Shown here in pieces: positions 9,308-18,206 of a stretch of 64,000 nt of DNA (position 1 is its first letter; each line of letters starts with the position of its first letter). The notes beneath the pieces were generated by a model that was not told the DNA's origin, made no database searches, and worked only from the letters and a program-made list of their open reading frames with translations. This DNA is from Acidobacteriota bacterium (GTDB taxonomy: Bacteria; Acidobacteriota; UBA6911; RPQK01; JAJDTT01), in contig OZ253580.1 in assembly GCA_965263035.1 (NCBI GenBank), positions 1,216,001-1,280,000 on the forward strand, in the 5' to 3' direction. A program made the translations under genes and the position numbers.

Positions 9308-10623
9308 TAAAGCTCGACGCCGGCGAAACGGCCGGCATACTCTCCCGCTATCTGCCCGCTTCCGGAGTGGAGATCGTCGCCGACCTGTCCCGAAGCCACG
9401 GATCCCGCCTCTGCGAATTCCAGACCAATCGTCTGTTTCTGGACTTCATGGCCTTCTTTGCCACCTCGCCCATCGGCTACAACCACCCTCGCATGACGCG
9501 TCCCGAAGTGGTGGAAGAAATGGGAGAGGCGGCCCTCCACAAACCGTCCAACTCGGACCTTTACACCCCCGAGATGGGGGCCTTCGTGGACACCTTTTCC
9601 CGCCTCGCGCTGCCTGATTCCATGAAGCACCTCTTCTTCGTGGAAGGCGGCGCCCCGGCGGTGGAAAACGCTCTCAAGGTGGCTTTCGACTGGAAGGCCC
9701 GGAAGAATCGCGCCCAAGGTCACCCGGAAGAGAAGGACCTTCAGGTGATCCATTTCAGGGAGGCCTTCCACGGACGGCTCGGCTACACCCTTTCCCTCAC
9801 CAACACCTTCGACCGGAACAAGACCCGGTATTTCCCCAAGTTCGGCTGGCCCCGGATCGAGAATCCCAAATGCCGCTTCCCCCTGACAGGAGACAACCTC
9901 AATTCAGTGCTGGAATCCGAGGAGCGAGCCCTGCGGCAGATCCGGCGGGTTCTGGAGAAGAATCCCTCGCAAGTCGCCTGCCTGATCCTGGAGCCGATCC
10001 AGGGGGAGGGCGGAGACAACCATTTCCGGCGGGAGTTCCACCGGGCTCTGCGGTCCGTCTGTGACGAGTTCGACCTCCTGTTCATCTACGACGAGGTGCA
10101 GACCGGCCTGGGCGGGACCGGAGAGATGTGGGCCATGGAGCATTACGCGGAGCCGGACCTGCTGGCCTTCGGCAAGAAGACCCAGGTCTGCGGGATCATG
10201 GCCAACGGCCGCATCGACGACGTCCCCGACAACGTCTTCCAGGTGCCGGGGCGGATCAATTCGACCTGGGGAGGGAGCCTCGTCGACATGGTCCGGTGCC
10301 GGATCTACCTGGAGATCTACGAGCGAGAGGGGATTCTGGCGCACGCCCGCAAGATGGGCCGTGTGCTGTTGGAGGGTCTTCACGAACTGATCGAGGAGAC
10401 GCCCGCCCTTTTCTCCAACGCCAGGGGCGTCGGTCCCTTTTGCGCCATCGACCTGCCCGACACTCCCAGCCGCGACCGGTTCGTGAGGAGCCTTCTACGC
10501 CGCCGCCTGCTCATCCTGCCCTCCGGCGAGCGGTCCATCCGCTTCCGACCCGCGCTGAACATGCCGGAAGAGGACGTGCAGGAGGGTCTGGAGATCTTCC
10601 GAAAGGCCACCCGGGAATTCTGA
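9286..10623 (+). CDS. lat: L-lysine 6-transaminase (class III aminotransferase); start uncertain (ATG 9286 or GTG 9154, both inside the repeat)
   Basis: KPSNSD, GAPAVENALKVAFDWK, AFHGR.GY, EPIQGEGGD, DEVQTG, AFGKKTQVCG, INSTWGG. Confidence 0.88.
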   Translation: MRLSPRTVKLDAGETAGILSRYLPASGVEIVADLSRSHGSRLCEFQTNRLFLDFMAFFATSPIGYNHPRMTRPEVVEEMGEAALHKPSNSDLYTPEMGAFVDTFSRLALPDSMKHLFFVEGGAPAVENALKVAFDWKARKNRAQGHPEEKDLQVIHFREAFHGRLGYTLSLTNTFDRNKTRYFPKFGWPRIENPKCRFPLTGDNLNSVLESEERALRQIRRVLEKNPSQVACLILEPIQGEGGDNHFRREFHRALRSVCDEFDLLFIYDEVQTGLGGTGEMWAMEHYAEPDLLAFGKKTQVCGIMANGRIDDVPDNVFQVPGRINSTWGGSLVDMVRCRIYLEIYEREGILAHARKMGRVLLEGLHELIEETPALFSNARGVGPFCAIDLPDTPSRDRFVRSLLRRRLLILPSGERSIRFRPALNMPEEDVQEGLEIFRKATREF

Positions 10624-10700
10624 CGTGCCGCCGGTCCGAAACCCCGGATCTATAGAGGACTCGGTAGCCGCTTGCCCCCGTGCCGTGAGTGCCAGCACAG

Positions 10701-13700
10701 CTAGCCCCAAAGCCAATCCAGTCCTGAGAAGGCCAGTTCCCGGTCGAAATTCTCGATATTGTCACGCACGTTCACGATCAGGCACCGGTCGTTGCCGCCA
10801 TTTCTCGGTCCTCTCAGACCTCTCCCGATCATCTGGAAATAGAGGTTCGGGCTGTAGACGGGACGGGCGACGATGATGACTCGCGTCTTGGGTGCGTCGA
10901 ATCCTTCGCGGAAGACGCCATAGTTGACCAAGACCCGGATCTCTCCCGCCCGGTATTCTTCGACGATCCTTCGTCGGACGGAGGACTCCGTTGCGCCGCT
11001 CACCACCCTGGACCTCACGCCTTGAGAGTTCAACAGCGCCGCCACCGTCAGAGCGTGTTCCACCGACGTGGCGAACACCAGCGTGGGCCACTCCGGGCTG
11101 ACATTACCAACGAGTCTTTCGTACGCGTGGACGATACGCTTGGTTCGATCCACGTCGCGAGCAATGCGATCCTCCATGCTGCGCGGCAACCAGGCGGGAA
11201 AACGCATCGCCTGCAATATTTTCAACTCCTCCCGGCTCAAGGAGAAATCGCCACCTTCGATGATTTCGTGGTCAGCGCGCGCCAGTACGCGCATCTCCTG
11301 CAGCTCGCGGACGACTTGCCCGGGTTCAGCGCTCGCCAACGCTCCGGCATCCAGGCGATTGGCACCGTAGCGACGCACCAGCCTTGCTGTTTCTCTCTCG
11401 TCATGCCCCCGGTAAGGCGTCGCGGTAAGGCCAATCAGAAACGGCTCCTCACTTCGCTGCCAACGGGTCAGCCCGATCTCTTCCATGACGGAAGTGAAGG
11501 TAGGCGCAATGGAACGGTGGGCTTCGTCGAAAACGACGAGTGTGAAATCCGAAAGGAAACTGTACTCACCGGGTTGTTTCGACAACTTGGCGTTGAGCGT
11601 CTGGATCGTCGCGACAATGACGTGGAGGTCGTTGCCAGGCAGGGGCCGCGGCTGGCCAGCCCACATCCTGGAAATGCGCAAGCGTTTCCCTTCAACGCCC
11701 ACGCTGGACCAGACTTGCCCCCACGCTTCCACAGCCTGCTCACACAGCTCGTCGCGGTCCGCCACCCACAGGACACCGCCATTGAAGCCGTCACGAATGG
11801 CTTCGACAATGGCCTGCACCGCGACGCGCGTCTTTCCTGACCCCGTAGGCAGACTGATCATCCCTCGACGCCCACCATTTCCCGCGAATCCATTGCAGAG
11901 CAGGTCTCGCACCCGGTCCACGATAGTGCGCTGGTAACCATGCGGTTCCGGAAGTGAGTGTGGCCCCTCCACATCAAGAAACGGCGGACGGCGAGAACTC
12001 CGTTGTCCGGCCCACTCCGCCGAGAACCCGAGCGATCGGACGAAGTCAACGGCGCGTTGTGATCCAGCCCAACGTTTCGGCGGGTCCAAGTGGTCCAAAG
12101 CCCATTTGTACTCTTTGAGAGCTGACGTGTGATACGTCGCAATGGCGATTTCTGCCAGCTCCATGCCGGTCATCGGTGTGCGGTCGACTTCAAGCACCTG
12201 AAGGAGGGACGTGGGCAAACCGGAACGCAGGGCATCCGCCCCCACGGCTTGGGCCAGCCTCTCGGCGTCCGATGCCAGACGCCGGATCGCCGCGTGCTGT
12301 CTTTCGACTTCCTCCGGGGCTGCGTACCGCAGTATGTGCTCGAGCTGGGTGTCACTCAGATCCAGACCCAACCGTTGCGTGACCAGCCGCAGCTCCCGAT
12401 CCTCGTCATCCGTCCTGACCAGGTAGACTTTGGAGTCCACCAATACACATTCGGGACCGCTGGCGCCGTCGGCGACCAGTTCCAGGCATCGGATGAGCGA
12501 CCAAGTCATCGAGTGCGCACTCAGGTGCGGCGCCAGACCGGGCCACACGTCGGTCAGCGGCACCGCGTCCTCCTCGCCGACAGGTTCCACCGCGGGCTCG
12601 GCAAGATCGAAGTCTTTCCTGATTCGGCTCGCCATCGGATGCGACAGCAGGACGCTCAGCGCGGCAGGATTGGCGGGGTGAGGACCGAGCGCATCCGCCA
12701 GGGGAACGATTTCACCGGCGCACCGGATACGCCCATGCTCCCTCAGCAACGCGACCGCCGGATTCGGACACGGAAGCTCCGGATAGATGCGCTGAGTTTC
12801 GTGGCGCAGGGTCCATCCGCCATACGTGGTCTCCAGGGAAAGCAAGGCGTCGGTATATCGTGCTCTGCCTTCATCGGAAAGCTGGGTCAGAACCTGCATG
12901 GGACCACTTCCGACCGTCGAGTCGAACTGCAGTCTGCGCCAATGCGGCTTCTTCGGAAGGTCCCGAGCCGTGAACTTCCGGCGACAGGTGTATACGAACC
13001 ACTCGAAAGCGGGGTCGCCCGACAATTGCCGATTCGGCCTCGGCCCATCCGTCACCCCGAGTCTCTCCAGCAACTTCAGGTCGGCACGATGGAAGTCGGT
13101 GTCGACCGTGACGTCGCTGTCGCGTGCGCCTGCCGAAGACACGATTTCACCGGGCAGGAGGGTCGAATACAGGCCCTGCCAATGGCCAGACCGCGTCCAC
13201 ACTTGAATCCGCCACGCCGAATCCCACCGGGCCTTGATCATCGCGTACGCCGTGTCCGTGCCCAAATCGCGCGAAGTGACCCAGAACTCGGTCCACCCCG
13301 TGCCACCCGATGCGCCGTTCCACCTGAACAACCGCCGGACCAGGGATTGGAAATGACTCTCAGCAGAGACGTACTTGATGCCAAGTTCCGTCAGAGCGGC
13401 CAAAGTGTCTGCGTCAGACACGAGCCGCGCATGAACCAGGAGGTCGTCAACATCCTGGTCGTCTTCGAACGATGACAGGAACACGCCATCCGGGTCAGGC
13501 GAGCACCAGTCCCCGCTCTGCGTCCGCAGAATGGCGCCAAGGTATGCTCCCTGCCTCAGCTCCTGCGGAATCGACGCAGCCACTTGGAGCGCCGTCATGG
13601 ACGCCTCGATCGCCTCATCTCCAACCGAGCCGTCGACCAGGGCATTCAGCCACTCTCCTATCGACGACCGAGGGGCCTGCGTCAAACTCCGCCGCTCCGG

Positions 13701-15152
13701 AGAAAACAGCCGGTTGACCCGGGCGATCCGATTCGTACGGAGTCCGCTGTGGTGAAGCCAGTCTGTTGGACGCTGACTGGCTTCTGCCCACTCTTGGAGC
13801 GATTCCGCCCCCGACAGATCTTGAGTCAGCGCTGACGGCGCGTAGGAAACGTCCCGTATCCTGCGCAGAGTTCCGACCTGATCGGGGACCACGGGCCGGC
13901 CGCGCAGTTCCTCATACAACCGATCGCGAAGGCGGTTGCTGTGCTCGGTGTCGCCAGCTTCATATCGGCGCGGGAGAGCATCCAGATGTCGTGCCGGATC
14001 CCGCTCGCTGGCCAGATCGGGCAAGCATCTCGCCACCATCCTCGCCGCGGCATCGATCAACTCGTCGTTGTACGGACCAGGCAACAGATTCTGCCGGTCT
14101 TCGTTGGTCTTCCAGGGTGCGTTCAGGATACCGGCCAGAAGACTTGCCGTCTTGGTCGGGAAGAAGTGCCAGAAATAACCCGGTTCGTTCAGTCGGTCCA
14201 ACGGCGCTGCCCACCAGACGGGCACCTCACCGCCGTCGTCGAGTGAACGTCTGTCCTCTTGGGCTTCGGCAGAAAGCTGGTGTGTGATCTTGAAGCACTT
14301 CCACCGCGAAGAACCTGAGCCGGTATCGAGGCGAAGCTTGCCGTTGAACCTTTCCAGAACGATTTTCCGAGACCGTTCCTCGCCTTCAAGGGTCAGATGC
14401 CGGACATGGTCAACAAACAGGAGAAACTCAGGCGGAAAATCGCGGACCTGTTGCGCAAGATCCTCCCATGCGCCCGGCTTCAGCGGCAGGCGGACGATGT
14501 TTGTGGCCCAAGTCATCAGATCGACCAGATCGTCGTCTCCTTCCGCCACTTTTCGAACATCAATGGGAACGGGCAACCGCAGGACCGGATAGCGTTCTCC
14601 TGGCACAAACTTGGCTATGCAGTCGGCCGCATATTCCCGGTCGAACCGAAAGGAGCCGGCGCGACTGTAGAACTCGGGTGCATCCGTGACACCCAGCACC
14701 GATTTGAAGCCCAGTCCAAACCGCCCGATCTCACTCGTGTTCCTCTTGCTCGACAGGTGGGAGAACATGAGTGCTCGGACCCCGTCCTGACTGATCGCGT
14801 CTCCATCGTCGGCGCAGTAGAGATGGTTTTCCGTCAGGCGGACCAGAATGCTCTGGCCGCAGAGTGCGTTGGCAAGCGCATCCGCACTGTTCTGGACCAG
14901 CTCGAAGAGCTGCCGATGAGCGTAACCGCCATGAGCGATATCATGCTCATGGTTTGCATGTTCGGTGATGAGATGCGGTTGCTCACGGTATGCCCGGAGC
15001 GTGTTCCTCGTCTGCTCCGCAATGAAACCGCAAATCGGATTATCGGAACCGGCCCAGCCGGGCTTTTCGATGGGTTGAGGCAGATTCAGCTTGGCATTCG
15101 GACGATAGAATCTACCGCGCTCACCCTTGGAGAAATCATACTCCTGTCTCAT
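10701..15152 (-). CDS. 1483-aa fusion: BrnA-like antitoxin N-terminal peptide + sacsin-like GHKL ATPase + SF2 (DEAH/ResIII-like) helicase
   Basis: N-term MRQEYDFSKGERGRFYRPNAKLNLP; GHKL boxes FELVQNSADA, DDG, IGRFGLGFKSV; helicase motifs LPTGSGKT, FDEAH, GLTATP, EGFDAP, QMIGRGLR. Confidence 0.85.
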   Translation of the reverse strand: MRQEYDFSKGERGRFYRPNAKLNLPQPIEKPGWAGSDNPICGFIAEQTRNTLRAYREQPHLITEHANHEHDIAHGGYAHRQLFELVQNSADALANALCGQSILVRLTENHLYCADDGDAISQDGVRALMFSHLSSKRNTSEIGRFGLGFKSVLGVTDAPEFYSRAGSFRFDREYAADCIAKFVPGERYPVLRLPVPIDVRKVAEGDDDLVDLMTWATNIVRLPLKPGAWEDLAQQVRDFPPEFLLFVDHVRHLTLEGEERSRKIVLERFNGKLRLDTGSGSSRWKCFKITHQLSAEAQEDRRSLDDGGEVPVWWAAPLDRLNEPGYFWHFFPTKTASLLAGILNAPWKTNEDRQNLLPGPYNDELIDAAARMVARCLPDLASERDPARHLDALPRRYEAGDTEHSNRLRDRLYEELRGRPVVPDQVGTLRRIRDVSYAPSALTQDLSGAESLQEWAEASQRPTDWLHHSGLRTNRIARVNRLFSPERRSLTQAPRSSIGEWLNALVDGSVGDEAIEASMTALQVAASIPQELRQGAYLGAILRTQSGDWCSPDPDGVFLSSFEDDQDVDDLLVHARLVSDADTLAALTELGIKYVSAESHFQSLVRRLFRWNGASGGTGWTEFWVTSRDLGTDTAYAMIKARWDSAWRIQVWTRSGHWQGLYSTLLPGEIVSSAGARDSDVTVDTDFHRADLKLLERLGVTDGPRPNRQLSGDPAFEWFVYTCRRKFTARDLPKKPHWRRLQFDSTVGSGPMQVLTQLSDEGRARYTDALLSLETTYGGWTLRHETQRIYPELPCPNPAVALLREHGRIRCAGEIVPLADALGPHPANPAALSVLLSHPMASRIRKDFDLAEPAVEPVGEEDAVPLTDVWPGLAPHLSAHSMTWSLIRCLELVADGASGPECVLVDSKVYLVRTDDEDRELRLVTQRLGLDLSDTQLEHILRYAAPEEVERQHAAIRRLASDAERLAQAVGADALRSGLPTSLLQVLEVDRTPMTGMELAEIAIATYHTSALKEYKWALDHLDPPKRWAGSQRAVDFVRSLGFSAEWAGQRSSRRPPFLDVEGPHSLPEPHGYQRTIVDRVRDLLCNGFAGNGGRRGMISLPTGSGKTRVAVQAIVEAIRDGFNGGVLWVADRDELCEQAVEAWGQVWSSVGVEGKRLRISRMWAGQPRPLPGNDLHVIVATIQTLNAKLSKQPGEYSFLSDFTLVVFDEAHRSIAPTFTSVMEEIGLTRWQRSEEPFLIGLTATPYRGHDERETARLVRRYGANRLDAGALASAEPGQVVRELQEMRVLARADHEIIEGGDFSLSREELKILQAMRFPAWLPRSMEDRIARDVDRTKRIVHAYERLVGNVSPEWPTLVFATSVEHALTVAALLNSQGVRSRVVSGATESSVRRRIVEEYRAGEIRVLVNYGVFREGFDAPKTRVIIVARPVYSPNLYFQMIGRGLRGPRNGGNDRCLIVNVRDNIENFDRELAFSGLDWLWG

Positions 15153-15454
15153 CGTACAGATTCGTCGTCGCGTCGCTCGTTTCGCCTTGCCGGCCGCGCC
15201 GAAATGATCCGCGTCGGGGTCCTGTCGCGGGCCTGACGGGAAGTGTGGCTCACGACCAACTAACGACCGTCCCGGGTCAGTCCAATCGTCAAATAGCGCC
15301 TCTCATCCTCACTGTGGTCTTCGTCAGCTATCGTCAATTCGAGCGGATCCTCGAACCCAGTGGCGGCATCACGAAAGTCGACGCCGTGCTTGCGCAAATT
15401 GCTTTCTGCCTCGCTCGGATCCCAATCGAAGTCGAACAAGCTATTCCTATCCAC
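15149..15454 (-). pseudogene. brnT: BrnT family (DUF497) RNase toxin with internal TAG stop at 15260-15262
   Basis: FDWDPSEAESNLRKHGVDF...HSEDERRYLTIG..GR*LVVSHT...RIISARPA...ERR; frame continues past TAG to a TGA overlapping the next ATG (ATGA). Confidence 0.85.
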
Positions 15455-15619
15455 TCGTTCAACAGCCAGGGTATGCCTTCATTTTCGAGGGGATGAAACA
15501 ATCCGGGTAAGTGCAACATTGACCAGCGGTCGGGCATCGACCATGCCAAAGCCACGCGAGCATCATAGGGCAGAATCAATCAGGTATTTGTCTGTTTCAA
15601 ATAGCCGACCATCGACCTC

Positions 15620-16009
15620 TCAAAGCACGTAGTGCCGGAGCCGGAAGCGAACCTGGTCGCGGGTCTCGACGGCGATGACGTCCAATCGCACCGGCGCCTC
15701 CTCCAACTCGTGGCGCCAGATGAACTCGCAGGCGAGGCGCTCCAGCCGGCGTTGCTTCTCCGGGTCCACGCGCTCCTCCGGCAGAAATGGTGAGGGAAGA
15801 AGACTCGTCTTCACCTCGACGAAGACGAGCCAGGAATCGTTCCAGGCGATCAGGTCCACCTCGCCCCGCCGGCTCCTCCAATTCCGGGCCACCACGTCCC
15901 ATCCCATCGCCAGCAGGTGCCGCAGTGCGATCCACTCGCCCCAGCGGCCCAAGTCGCCGCGAGAGGGGTTGAAGCGCCGATTCCAGAGCCAGGCGAGGAT
16001 CGGGGACAC
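15620..16009 (-). CDS. yraN: YraN family (UPF0102) PD-(D/E)XK protein
   Basis: GRWGE..A, ARNWRSRRGEVDLIA, LVFVEVKT, RLDVIAV; GTG start with GAGGG RBS chosen. Confidence 0.88.
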   Translation of the reverse strand: MSPILAWLWNRRFNPSRGDLGRWGEWIALRHLLAMGWDVVARNWRSRRGEVDLIAWNDSWLVFVEVKTSLLPSPFLPEERVDPEKQRRLERLACEFIWRHELEEAPVRLDVIAVETRDQVRFRLRHYVL

Positions 16010-16130
16010 CCGTCCCTCACGCACCCAACCACCGCTTGCAGTCGTGCGAAGCATCCCTCGAACAGAACGTCTCGGGATCAAAAAACACGGGAAGACCCGG
16101 CGCCGCAGGAGGGTAAGCTGGAAGACTCGG

Positions 16131-16586
16131 TTATTTGCCTGGTTTATCCTTGAAGTCCAGGGCCGCCGAATTGATACAGAAGCGAAGGCCGGTGGGACGG
16201 GGGCCGTCATCGAAGACGTGTCCCAGGTGAGACCCGCAACCGCGGCACAGGACCTCGACTCTCCTCATCCCGTAGCTGTCGTCCGTCTCCATGGCGACCC
16301 GCTCTTTCTCGACGGGAGCCCAGAAGCTGGGCCAACCGGTCCCCGAATCGAACTTGGTGTCCGAGCTGAAGAGCTCGCTGCCGCAGGCCACGCAAAGATA
16401 GGAGCCGTCGGCCTTGTTGGCGTCGTACTTGCCGGAAAAGGGTGGCTCGGTTCCCTTCATCCTGCAGACGTAGAACTGCGCTGCGCTGAGGGTCTTTCTC
16501 CACTCCTCCTCGGTGGTGGCAGTGGGTGTTTCCGAACGTTCATCCTCGTCCCGAGCCCCGTCGGGGTCTCTCCGCCAGTTCGCCAT
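16131..16586 (-). CDS. msrB: Peptide-methionine (R)-S-oxide reductase
   Basis: GTEPPFSG, CVACG, KFDSGTGWPSF, CGSHLGHVFDDGP, RFCINSAAL. Confidence 0.97.
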   Translation of the reverse strand: MANWRRDPDGARDEDERSETPTATTEEEWRKTLSAAQFYVCRMKGTEPPFSGKYDANKADGSYLCVACGSELFSSDTKFDSGTGWPSFWAPVEKERVAMETDDSYGMRRVEVLCRGCGSHLGHVFDDGPRPTGLRFCINSAALDFKDKPGK

Positions 16587-16619
16587 GAGGTCTCCTTTCC
16601 GGTCCTTTTTCGCTCAACC

Positions 16620-18206
16620 AGAGCGTCGCTTTGATCCCAAGACAACTTGACTCCTGCATTTCCTGAAAAGTGCCGCAAGAGATTGCCGCCAAAACCACGG
16701 CTGCTGCGAATCCGACGGAGATCTCCGTTTCTGGATACTGGCTTCGATGCTGGCCGAAATTTCCTACGGAGTGTAGGTGGTCCACCAACAGAGAAGTCGT
16801 CTTCGTAACGTATTTGCTTTGTCGAGAAATACGATCCGACCCCGTTATCAGGCGAAGAACATGGCATTGCCTTCCGAACCCACGAGGTAGCCTACCTTGT
16901 TCTTCCGGAAAGTTCGTTATACGTCCGTGTCCCCACTCGGCAAGCCAATGTGGGGGTAGCGTCCTTTGGGGCGGCAACTCGGCTTTCCAGATCAGTACGA
17001 GAGCACGTTCGACTATGCCCCTGATTCCGTAGATCGTGAGTTCCGGATCGTCAATCTCTTTGACGGCACGGTTGACGAAGTTTTTGAGGATGCTGTCTAC
17101 ATCCTGGCCTGCAATTTGCCTGAGGCGGAGTTCCAGTAAGGGTCCAACGTGCGTTTCGAAGTCGGAAGCAGTGCCGAAAAGGCGCGTGAGGTTGGTGAGA
17201 GCCGGCGCCTGTCGTCTCGCGTACCTCTGAATGAGTCGGCACGAGCCTCTGATACGGTTTTTCGAAACGCGGCCAAATCCTCGTTCCTCAAGTGTGCGGC
17301 GACGGCGGTCAGAAATGTCAGTTAGCGGAATATCGGCGTCGGCAAGCGCGCCGAGGTCGGCGCGTATGTCGACATCGCAGTCCTCCCACAGAGCGGCAAG
17401 GAGTTCAAGCCGTCCCTCCAATATAGTTTCAGCGGCTGCATCAATCTCCGGTTTGGAGACGCGGGCTCCGCGATGTCGATCCCATAACTCCTGGAGGAGC
17501 GCGCAAATCAGCACAGGAGCGCCTCCTGTCCAGTTGGTGATCTCCTTTCGAGCCGAAACATCCGGCTCGCAGCCGACGTCCAGGAGCGGCTGCAGGAACG
17601 GATCCCAATCAGCGTCGTCGAGCGCACCGACCCGGACCGGGGTGTCGTAAAAGATCTCCCAGAAGTCAGAGGTTCGAGGCTCCTCGGTCCGGCAGAGCTC
17701 GCGCAACGGCCGGCGACTTCCGGTGACGAGTCTGAGACTGGTCTTCTGGGCCAGCGAACGAAGCTGACCCCACAGGTTGCGCGTCAATCCCGGACCGTCG
17801 AGCACCACGAGTATCCGCGCACACTCGCCTACAAGCTCCCCGAGAACCAGTCCCAATAGATCATGAACCGCTGGATCCTCGACATCGATCCACTCGGAAA
17901 GCTCCTCGCGGTACGGTTGCAGAGCTTTTTTGATTTCTTCCCCCAACCGCTGCTTGAATGCACCGTCCGACCTGGGAGTCCCATGCCTAAGATCGACGTG
18001 GACCGTGGTCAGGTACCCACTCGACTTCGAGGTGTACTCTTTGGCGAGATGGCGCAGCAGGACGGATTTGCCGTAGTGCGCCGGACCCACAACCGATACG
18101 TGATCCGGCGAGGGTTTCTCCGAGTGGCGCTTGATGCGCCGGAGGAGGGCCTTTCTTCCCAAAAGGGGAGGTGGAATCCCAGAACACGATAAGGATTTTT
18201 CGTCAT
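16620..18206 (-). pseudogene. STAND/AAA-type ATPase, frameshifted and internally deleted (3' end approximate)
   Basis: Start MTKNPYRVLG (18206) is out of frame with the body (GRKALL...SVVGPAHYGKS); Walker B region looks shortened (LVVLDGPGLTRNLW); WTGG.P motif; C-terminus runs into msrB. Confidence 0.6.

Follow-up and report, generated by a model that had tools for sequence, protein, structure and literature searches.

The toxin gene brnT and a large gene behind it form a two-gene module in the stretch of Acidobacteriota bacterium DNA analyzed here, which spans 64,000 nt (GenBank assembly GCA_965263035.1, contig OZ253580.1, positions 1,216,001 to 1,280,000) and is called the window; coordinates count from its first letter. 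We found that the large gene, a 1483-aa open reading frame (ORF), starts with the N-terminal segment of a BrnA-type antitoxin and continues as a Tiamat-like enzyme with a sacsin/GHKL ATPase, a central region and a superfamily 2 (SF2) helicase, and that relatives in several phyla keep this peptide together with an intact toxin gene. Our reading is that these proteins are toxin-armed Tiamat-like enzymes that release the toxin upon activation of the ATPase and helicase, and we put its probability at about 45%. The value of the finding lies at the level of the family, of which the window copy is a toxin-dead example.

Architecture of the module and its conservation

The large ORF lies at 10701..15152 on the minus strand, and its N-terminus reads MRQEYDFSKGERGRFYRPNAKLNLP. 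Residues 1-25 (15078..15152, minus strand) are the BrnA-type segment, a putative BrnT-neutralizing tether. The toxin gene (15149..15454, minus strand; 101 codons with a single in-frame TAG) matches Pfam BrnT_toxin, and its stop codon TGA (15149-15151) forms an ATGA overlap with the start codon of the large ORF, so that both genes are translationally coupled. An earlier sequence-only reading of this DNA had described this overlap as well as the succession of peptide, GHKL ATPase and SF2 helicase; the former was confirmed by the Pfam match and the window sequence, and the latter by matches to P_loop_sacsin, TmtA, ResIII and Helicase_C.

To determine whether homologues keep the peptide and an intact brnT, a check that the sequence-only reading had proposed, we used both proteins and genomes. 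Among the 120 top-ranking protein homologues (57-99% identity, ~1440-1560 aa), 104 have the peptide at their start. A genomic scan with one genome per species gave 568 relatives, and all locus counts below refer to the best 80 of these 568. The peptide was present at 33 of the 80 loci and absent at 47; among the latter, two are cut by a contig end (L074, L091) and two hold broken genes (L055, L066). We searched for brnT with the BrnT hidden Markov model in six frames within ±4 kb of the large gene and found a match ending at the large-gene start in 32/33 peptide-bearing loci and a match in 0/47 peptide-less loci. The toxin gene was full-length in a single frame at 26 of the 33 peptide-bearing loci, and its stop overlaps the start codon of the large gene by 4 nt in 23 of these 26. 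Six further copies were broken by frameshifts (L016, L029), reduced to fragments (L017) or remnants (L014, L015) or, at L036, shortened by a 5' deletion and joined to an acetyl-CoA-synthetase fragment; L087 has the peptide and no BrnT match. For each toxin-peptide pair, co-occurrence was exclusive and loss was coupled, and functional coupling of toxin to enzyme is well supported.

Judged by record titles, the loci with the peptide come from at least six groups of phylum rank (Acidobacteriota/Vicinamibacteria, Binatia, Spirochaetia, Alpha- and Gammaproteobacteria, Gemmatimonadota and Latescibacterota), and the large protein at these loci shows 53-92% identity. We read this as horizontal spread of toxin and fusion as one unit across phyla. 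A FastTree tree of 79 large proteins (L055 and L066 left out as broken; midpoint root, read without branch supports) split the peptide-bearing proteins into three clades, with peptide-less proteins between them. Hence, the 33 peptide loci are not independent, and there was more than one joint gain or loss of toxin and peptide. The BrnT tree, of low resolution since the proteins are short, repeats the clades of the enzyme tree, and fusion-linked BrnTs stand beside those paired with 66-aa antitoxins and apart from partners of PF14384-type BrnA. The two trees suggest that BrnT and enzyme were co-inherited, which favors toxin release by an armed enzyme.

The peptide is shared with small antitoxins

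The sequence-only reading had called a start of the EYDFS type typical of the small antitoxins that partner BrnT. We built a profile from the N-terminal 50 residues of 32 family members. It matched 2967 proteins with lengths of 27-88 aa at E<=10, and the 120 top matches had E<=4.5e-10 and were mostly 66 aa long; in an exhaustive search, 925 clusters at 50% identity matched the peptide (E<=0.001). These free 66-aa proteins share residues 1-25 with the fusion and continue, after a conserved Leu-Pro, with a β-strand and two helices. This continuation (residues 25-58) aligns with the ribbon-helix-helix (RHH) domains of solved antitoxins and with Pfam RHH models. Hence, because the RHH begins at residue 25, nothing of the free antitoxin but its N-terminal ~24 residues lies outside the RHH. 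Similarity between fusion and free antitoxins stops at that same residue, where the RHH strand begins, and the fusion lacks the RHH, as the sequence-only reading had stated.

All of 32 fusion proteins share M1, Y5, D6, F7, G13 and P25, and E4, S8, R12 and F15, which lie within the segment common to the free antitoxins, are near-invariant. At free-standing loci in Acidobacteriota, such antitoxins sit directly behind brnT in 20/25 cases (19/23 without two unpublished genomes). Two plasmid relatives are annotated in RefSeq as 'BrnA antitoxin family protein' beside 'BrnT family toxin', and one relative, L109, matches PF14384 at 1e-14. The first 60 or 80 residues of the large protein matched no antitoxin or RHH family of Pfam or NCBIfam, PF14384 and PF12441 included. 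Hence, by the Pfam test the large protein is not a BrnA family member and shares the docking end only.

An AlphaFold2 model of residues 1-500, built from a 30-sequence alignment, gave a confident fold for residues ~30-330 and a predicted local distance difference test score (pLDDT) below 50 for residues 1-28. The low pLDDT would fit the look of a tether that folds upon binding. In HigBA2 of Vibrio cholerae, a disordered N-terminal segment of the antitoxin neutralizes the toxin, and a short peptide suffices (PMC5416850). Given this precedent, a free antitoxin that offers nothing else for binding and a toxin that never persists without the peptide, the peptide likely binds and neutralizes BrnT. 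We found no solved toxin complex for the 66-aa antitoxin type, and nothing relevant in the literature on the EYDFS motif.

Searching longer proteins with the 50-aa profile returned mainly the same family and fragments, and no other cargo type emerged. Separately, an intact brnT in another acidobacteriote (L116:977-2232, genome G110) overlaps a 243-aa ORF that starts with the same peptide; the ORF has only the peptide in common with the enzyme, and its remainder has no Pfam match. The docking tag may here carry a third kind of cargo, or the ORF may have arisen by recombination. Two short database proteins (P0407, P0425) have the peptide followed by RadC-like or HigA-like helix-turn-helix (HTH) sequence; these may represent additional natural chimeras, or artifacts of gene calling.

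A second antidote segment meets the enzyme at the same site

At four Dehalococcoidia loci (L044, L067, L070, L075), the same enzyme starts with a segment of ~50 aa that covers profile positions 2-46 (to 54) of the 90 in Pfam dnstrm_HI1420 (PF21716, 'probable addiction module antidote protein'). The matched half is the part of HI1420 ahead of its DNA-binding portion. A toxin gene of the Gp49 family (PF05973) lies 10 nt upstream of the enzyme at all four loci and is full-length in three; at L075, an IS3-like transposase ORF (L075:2626-3570) interrupts its 5' end and the fusion gene is intact, which is another route of toxin loss. L089, of the same clade, retains the N-terminal half of the toxin only, and its antidote piece is gone. 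The BrnA-type and HI1420-type adaptors meet the enzyme at the same site, just before a conserved Trp-x-Gly-Pro motif. The second toxin/antitoxin pair is an independent case of the same design.

Two other kinds of N-terminus were seen. Chloroflexota relatives have an extension of 30-80 aa that is very rich in Lys/Arg and lacks a toxin gene ahead of it; it could serve as a tail for binding nucleic acids (L047-L050, L056-L058, L061-L065, L073, L076, L092; 13 loci by a simple pattern). The database proteins P0089 and P0117 carry another extension of ~75 aa with an acidic Asp-Glu-Ser-x-Glu-Asp-Tyr-Leu-Tyr-Pro stretch; it matched no Pfam family and occurs in none of the 80 loci.

The enzyme body is Tiamat-like

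Residues 43-477 of the ORF (13722..15026, minus strand) match PADLOC TmtA at 1.6e-64 and form the Tiamat-like N-terminal region. Within it lies the GHKL/sacsin ATP-binding domain (~residues 80-166, window 14655-14915, minus strand), where NCBIfam P_loop_sacsin matches residues 80-162 with 65.6 bits (cut-off 50). The central region (residues 478-1068; 11949..13721, minus strand) is conserved across homologues in a 56-protein alignment and could be assigned to no family: no Pfam family, including DUF3684, the central region of Tiamat proper, matched residues 480-1060 at E<=1, and the PADLOC TmtA match stops at residue 477. The SF2 helicase core follows (residues 1069-1447; 10812..11948, minus strand), with ResIII matching residues 1069-1248 at 2e-25 and Helicase_C residues 1347-1447 at 3.6e-13. 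The core comprises two RecA-like domains and carries motifs I, II, III and VI, which places it in SF2.

Catalytic residues are invariant in 56 full-length homologues. In the GHKL domain these are E84, N88, D91, D115, G117, G143, G146 and G148; in the helicase, they are T1103, G1104, G1106, K1107 and T1108 (motif I), D1209, E1210, A1211 and H1212 (motif II), T1243, A1244, T1245 and P1246 (motif III), and Q1440, G1443, R1444, G1445 and R1447 (motif VI). With the GHKL and helicase motif residues invariant, the enzyme looks active.

Tiamat of Bacillus cereus is an ATPase/DNase, and in bacterial 'Tiamat-like Type III-A' proteins a UvrB-like SF2 helicase replaces its PD-(D/E)xK nuclease, according to the main text of the Tiamat preprint (bioRxiv 10.64898/2026.09.30.754977). 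The Hsp90/sacsin-like ATPase N-terminus and SF2 helicase of the Type III-A proteins, as described there, are the body plan seen here. Unlike Tiamat (TmtA) proper, the 1483-aa ORF has no C-terminal PD-(D/E)xK nuclease and ends in the SF2 helicase instead. By its domain order, the enzyme body fits with the Tiamat-like Type III-A class and not with Tiamat proper.

The toxin gene of the window has decayed

With the TAG read as X, the window brnT covers the full Pfam BrnT_toxin profile (PF04365, 1-77/77) at 87.5 bits and 7.2e-25 (cut-off 34.5 bits). Among 25 intact relatives, 27 positions are conserved to at least 90%, and the window BrnT retains 25 of these. The other two are the TAG, at codon 65 (15260..15262, minus strand), where 23/25 relatives have Leu, and a Glu in place of a Lys that is invariant in 25/25.

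The TAG is kept in contigs of three different studies. The contig of run X3 has 0 differences to the window across 10849-15700, TAG included; that of run X10 has 10 differences, none at the TAG; and a contig of the RNA library X18 spans 15176-15403 with its sole difference at 15266 and the TAG unchanged. An assembly error was rejected because these independent runs carry the same codon, and the amber codon is real. Contigs of the RNA libraries X17 and X18 cover parts of both genes; DNA carry-over is possible, and we did not count them as expression. Read-through or recoding of the amber codon was also rejected, since there is no tRNA with a CUA anticodon among the 63 tRNA genes found in the genome with aragorn, and since the Lys-to-Glu change is a second defect in brnT. 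No second brnT locus was found in the genome.

The window brnT is a dead pseudogene, and the gene is broken or gone in genus relatives too: BrnT lies in two fragments at L017, only a C-terminal remnant is left at L014 and L015, and in G148 BrnT is undetectable with the large gene and peptide intact. Hence, the window locus cannot now act as a toxin-releasing system; it is now the enzyme with a vestigial tether only. The sequence-only reading had interpreted the locus as a guard system. The coupling of toxin and enzyme on which this view builds holds up well for the family, but the window copy itself can no longer release a toxin.

The module is a mobile unit among housekeeping genes

In genome G088 of the same genus, which lacks the module, only a few bases separate the aminotransferase and UPF0102 genes that flank it in the window. 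By blastn, its locus (L125) runs from window 9310-10624 directly into window 15613-16624, which defines the module as an indel (10625..15612, no strand). The indel is a clean 5.0 kb that holds both module genes and nothing else, and it sits among housekeeping genes. The composition profile of the window showed no sharp island signature, and a scan for promoters and terminators gave no more than chance.

A protein of ~1200 aa that matches PADLOC PDC-S68 over its full length adjoins the module at two loci (L021:34-3654 and L054:8968-12483), upstream in one and downstream in the other. Two genes upstream of the window module, a 540-aa ORF (16540-18162, minus strand) has weak matches, below cut-off, to AAA_16/STAND-type NTPases and may be another conflict-related ATPase.

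Many loci in the range L014-L093 come from metagenome-assembled genomes titled with the names of sponge-associated lineages (Candidatus Poriferihabitaceae, Poriferisodalis, Spongiisocius and others). With 50-70% identity across phyla, the family has the look of a trait passed horizontally within one type of community.

Proposed mechanism

The module would have arisen from an ordinary toxin-first brnT-brnA pair in which a body of ~1450 aa, comprising the sacsin/GHKL ATPase, the central region and the SF2 helicase, replaced the RHH domain of the antitoxin, and the N-terminal ~25 antitoxin residues alone were kept. The ATGA overlap would keep both genes translationally coupled, and the pair would travel between phyla as a unit. 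In the cell, the disordered peptide would fold onto BrnT and hold the RNase inactive on the enzyme. The enzyme may be triggered by foreign nucleic acid or through attack by a phage factor; engagement of the trigger would rearrange or occupy the N-terminal stretch that directly precedes the GHKL domain, and the freed BrnT would then cleave RNA and arrest the infected cell (abortive infection). We infer both the inactive holding of the RNase and its release on foreign DNA.

In other GHKL ATPases, an N-terminal strap swaps between protomers on ATP-driven dimerization. As a tentative and rather doubtful generalization, Tiamat-like ATPase-helicases may carry exchangeable N-terminal adaptors (the BrnA segment for BrnT, the HI1420 half for Gp49), and closure of the clamp around a foreign substrate might strip off the toxin and lead to abortive infection. 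The BrnA segment would then be a portable toxin-docking tag, present also on the unrelated 243-aa protein of L116.

We lean towards a role of the module in defense, from the TmtA match taken together with the main text of the Tiamat preprint (bioRxiv 10.64898/2026.09.30.754977). No family member was found on viral contigs among the best 80 matches, where only helicase-domain matches of 25-30% appeared; this result is neutral on defense either way.

Several observations weigh against toxin release by an activated enzyme. The large gene is intact where brnT is broken or missing, at 7 of the 33 peptide loci and in the window; hence, the toxin is dispensable. In G148, the peptide is still well conserved with no detectable brnT, and so its retention either is not strictly toxin-dependent or has had too little time to decay. 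A toxin partner is missing in 47 of the 80 relatives. A crude count of synonymous/non-synonymous differences, from which the pair L021/L031 was dropped for offset, gave 61/79 for the peptide, 66/94 for the next 28 codons and 22/46 for the linker; by this crude count, the peptide appears no more constrained than the 28 codons behind it. Lastly, of 116 ORFs that flank the module at 26 loci, only 10, spread over 7 loci, matched PADLOC models; hence, most loci are not in recognizable defense islands.

Competing explanations

The main rival is addiction. Here, too, the peptide neutralizes BrnT, and the pair serves only to protect the large gene against loss or silencing: once the enzyme is lost, truncated or degraded, the stable toxin is set free, and there is no triggered release. 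Addiction explains the same co-occurrence and coupled loss as toxin release does, and it agrees with a mobile 5-kb unit among housekeeping genes, with most loci lying outside defense islands and with the core enzyme standing alone in 47/80 relatives. However, brnT decays repeatedly and the enzyme gene persists, so that addiction is weak in practice, and mere addiction needs no placement such as that of the two toxin families recruited at the same position ahead of the GHKL domain. We consider addiction unlikely.

Expression hitch-hiking is more improbable still. The enzyme gene would have taken over the promoter, the ribosome-binding context and the first codons of brnA, leaving the peptide as a non-binding relic and BrnT either checked in another way or only mildly toxic. 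The persistence of the peptide without detectable brnT in G148 and L087, the codons of the peptide, not visibly more constrained than their neighbors, and the failure of Pfam antitoxin models to find the peptide are all as expected for such a relic. Against this, the invariant Y5, D6, F7 and G13 lie in the segment common to the free antitoxins, and the free 66-aa antitoxin has nothing else outside its RHH with which to bind the toxin. An unneutralized toxin would explain why brnT is kept in 0/47 peptide-less loci, and an unrelated antidote/toxin pair has the same design.

A private one-off deletion that put the helicase under the toxin/antitoxin (TA) promoter, the alternative offered by the sequence-only reading, would account for a brnT pseudogene here, as expected after loss of the real antitoxin, but it is refuted by the same fusion with an intact brnT at 26 loci of several phyla, by the peptide in 104/120 homologues, close ones included, and by the second pair built alike.

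Relation to known systems

BrnT/BrnA, with its prototype in Brucella abortus, shares with the module the BrnT_toxin family, the toxin-first order with start/stop overlap and the same N-terminal segment. The partner here is instead a 1483-aa ATPase-helicase that lacks an RHH or any other TA-type DNA-binding domain, and BrnA carries a C-terminal RHH that controls transcription (PMC11980606). Hence, no TA-style autoregulation is expected of the fusion. HigB2/HigA2 is likewise toxin-first, with a disordered N-terminal antitoxin segment and a C-terminal DNA-binding domain, and its logic is the one proposed for both adaptor classes; HigA2, however, is an ordinary small HTH antitoxin with no fused enzyme. 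The paper on HigBA2 also lists brnTA among the toxin-first modules (PMC5416850).

BrnT genes have entered other large systems and fusions. BrnT-like genes lie upstream of some RtcR-associated CoCoNuT systems (PMC11090510), and single-chain BrnT-BrnA fusions have been reported (PMC11980606). Like the module, these cases have BrnT toxins recruited beside large defense systems or brnTA genes entering fusions. The consulted text on CoCoNuT describes no fusion of an antitoxin peptide to a large protein, and in the BrnT-BrnA fusions, as far as that report presents them, the joined parts are the toxin and a complete RHH/HTH antitoxin rather than an enzyme and a piece of an antitoxin.

The main text of the Tiamat preprint (bioRxiv 10.64898/2026.09.30.754977) names neither BrnT nor an upstream toxin nor an N-terminal antitoxin peptide, and it mentions antitoxins once, in a general remark on PIN toxins; its supplements might list such neighborhoods. 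More widely, we found no antitoxin fragment on an ATPase-helicase coupled to a toxin in the printed texts covered, with the supplements of these papers again a place where such neighborhoods might be listed.

A similar working principle to the proposed one is known from several defense systems. In PARIS (AriA/AriB), Hachiman (HamB/HamA) and Lamassu, a large NTPase or helicase holds a nuclease inactive and frees it upon infection. The effectors of these systems are dedicated, whereas here a stock type II TA RNase would be held via a vestigial peptide in cis, and the adaptor is exchangeable. We rate the module as a combination of known kinds, namely type II TA pairs, Tiamat-like defense enzymes and sensor-held effectors, in which the coupling to a toxin appears to be new.

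Significance

If toxin release by the enzyme is true, the family would link type II TA pairs, whose role is debated, with large defense sensors whose effector is often unknown. The antitoxin would have become the sensor, its DNA-binding half swapped for an ATPase-helicase and its toxin-docking end kept. This gives a testable model of how a nuclease-less Tiamat-like protein could kill or arrest the cell, and of how TA toxins could be domesticated as effectors. Since another, unrelated toxin/antidote pair follows the same design, there may be a modular rule of general reach, which can be used to find further toxin-armed defense enzymes. As judged by the lineage names in many record titles, the family may be a notable part of the defense repertoire in sponge-associated communities.

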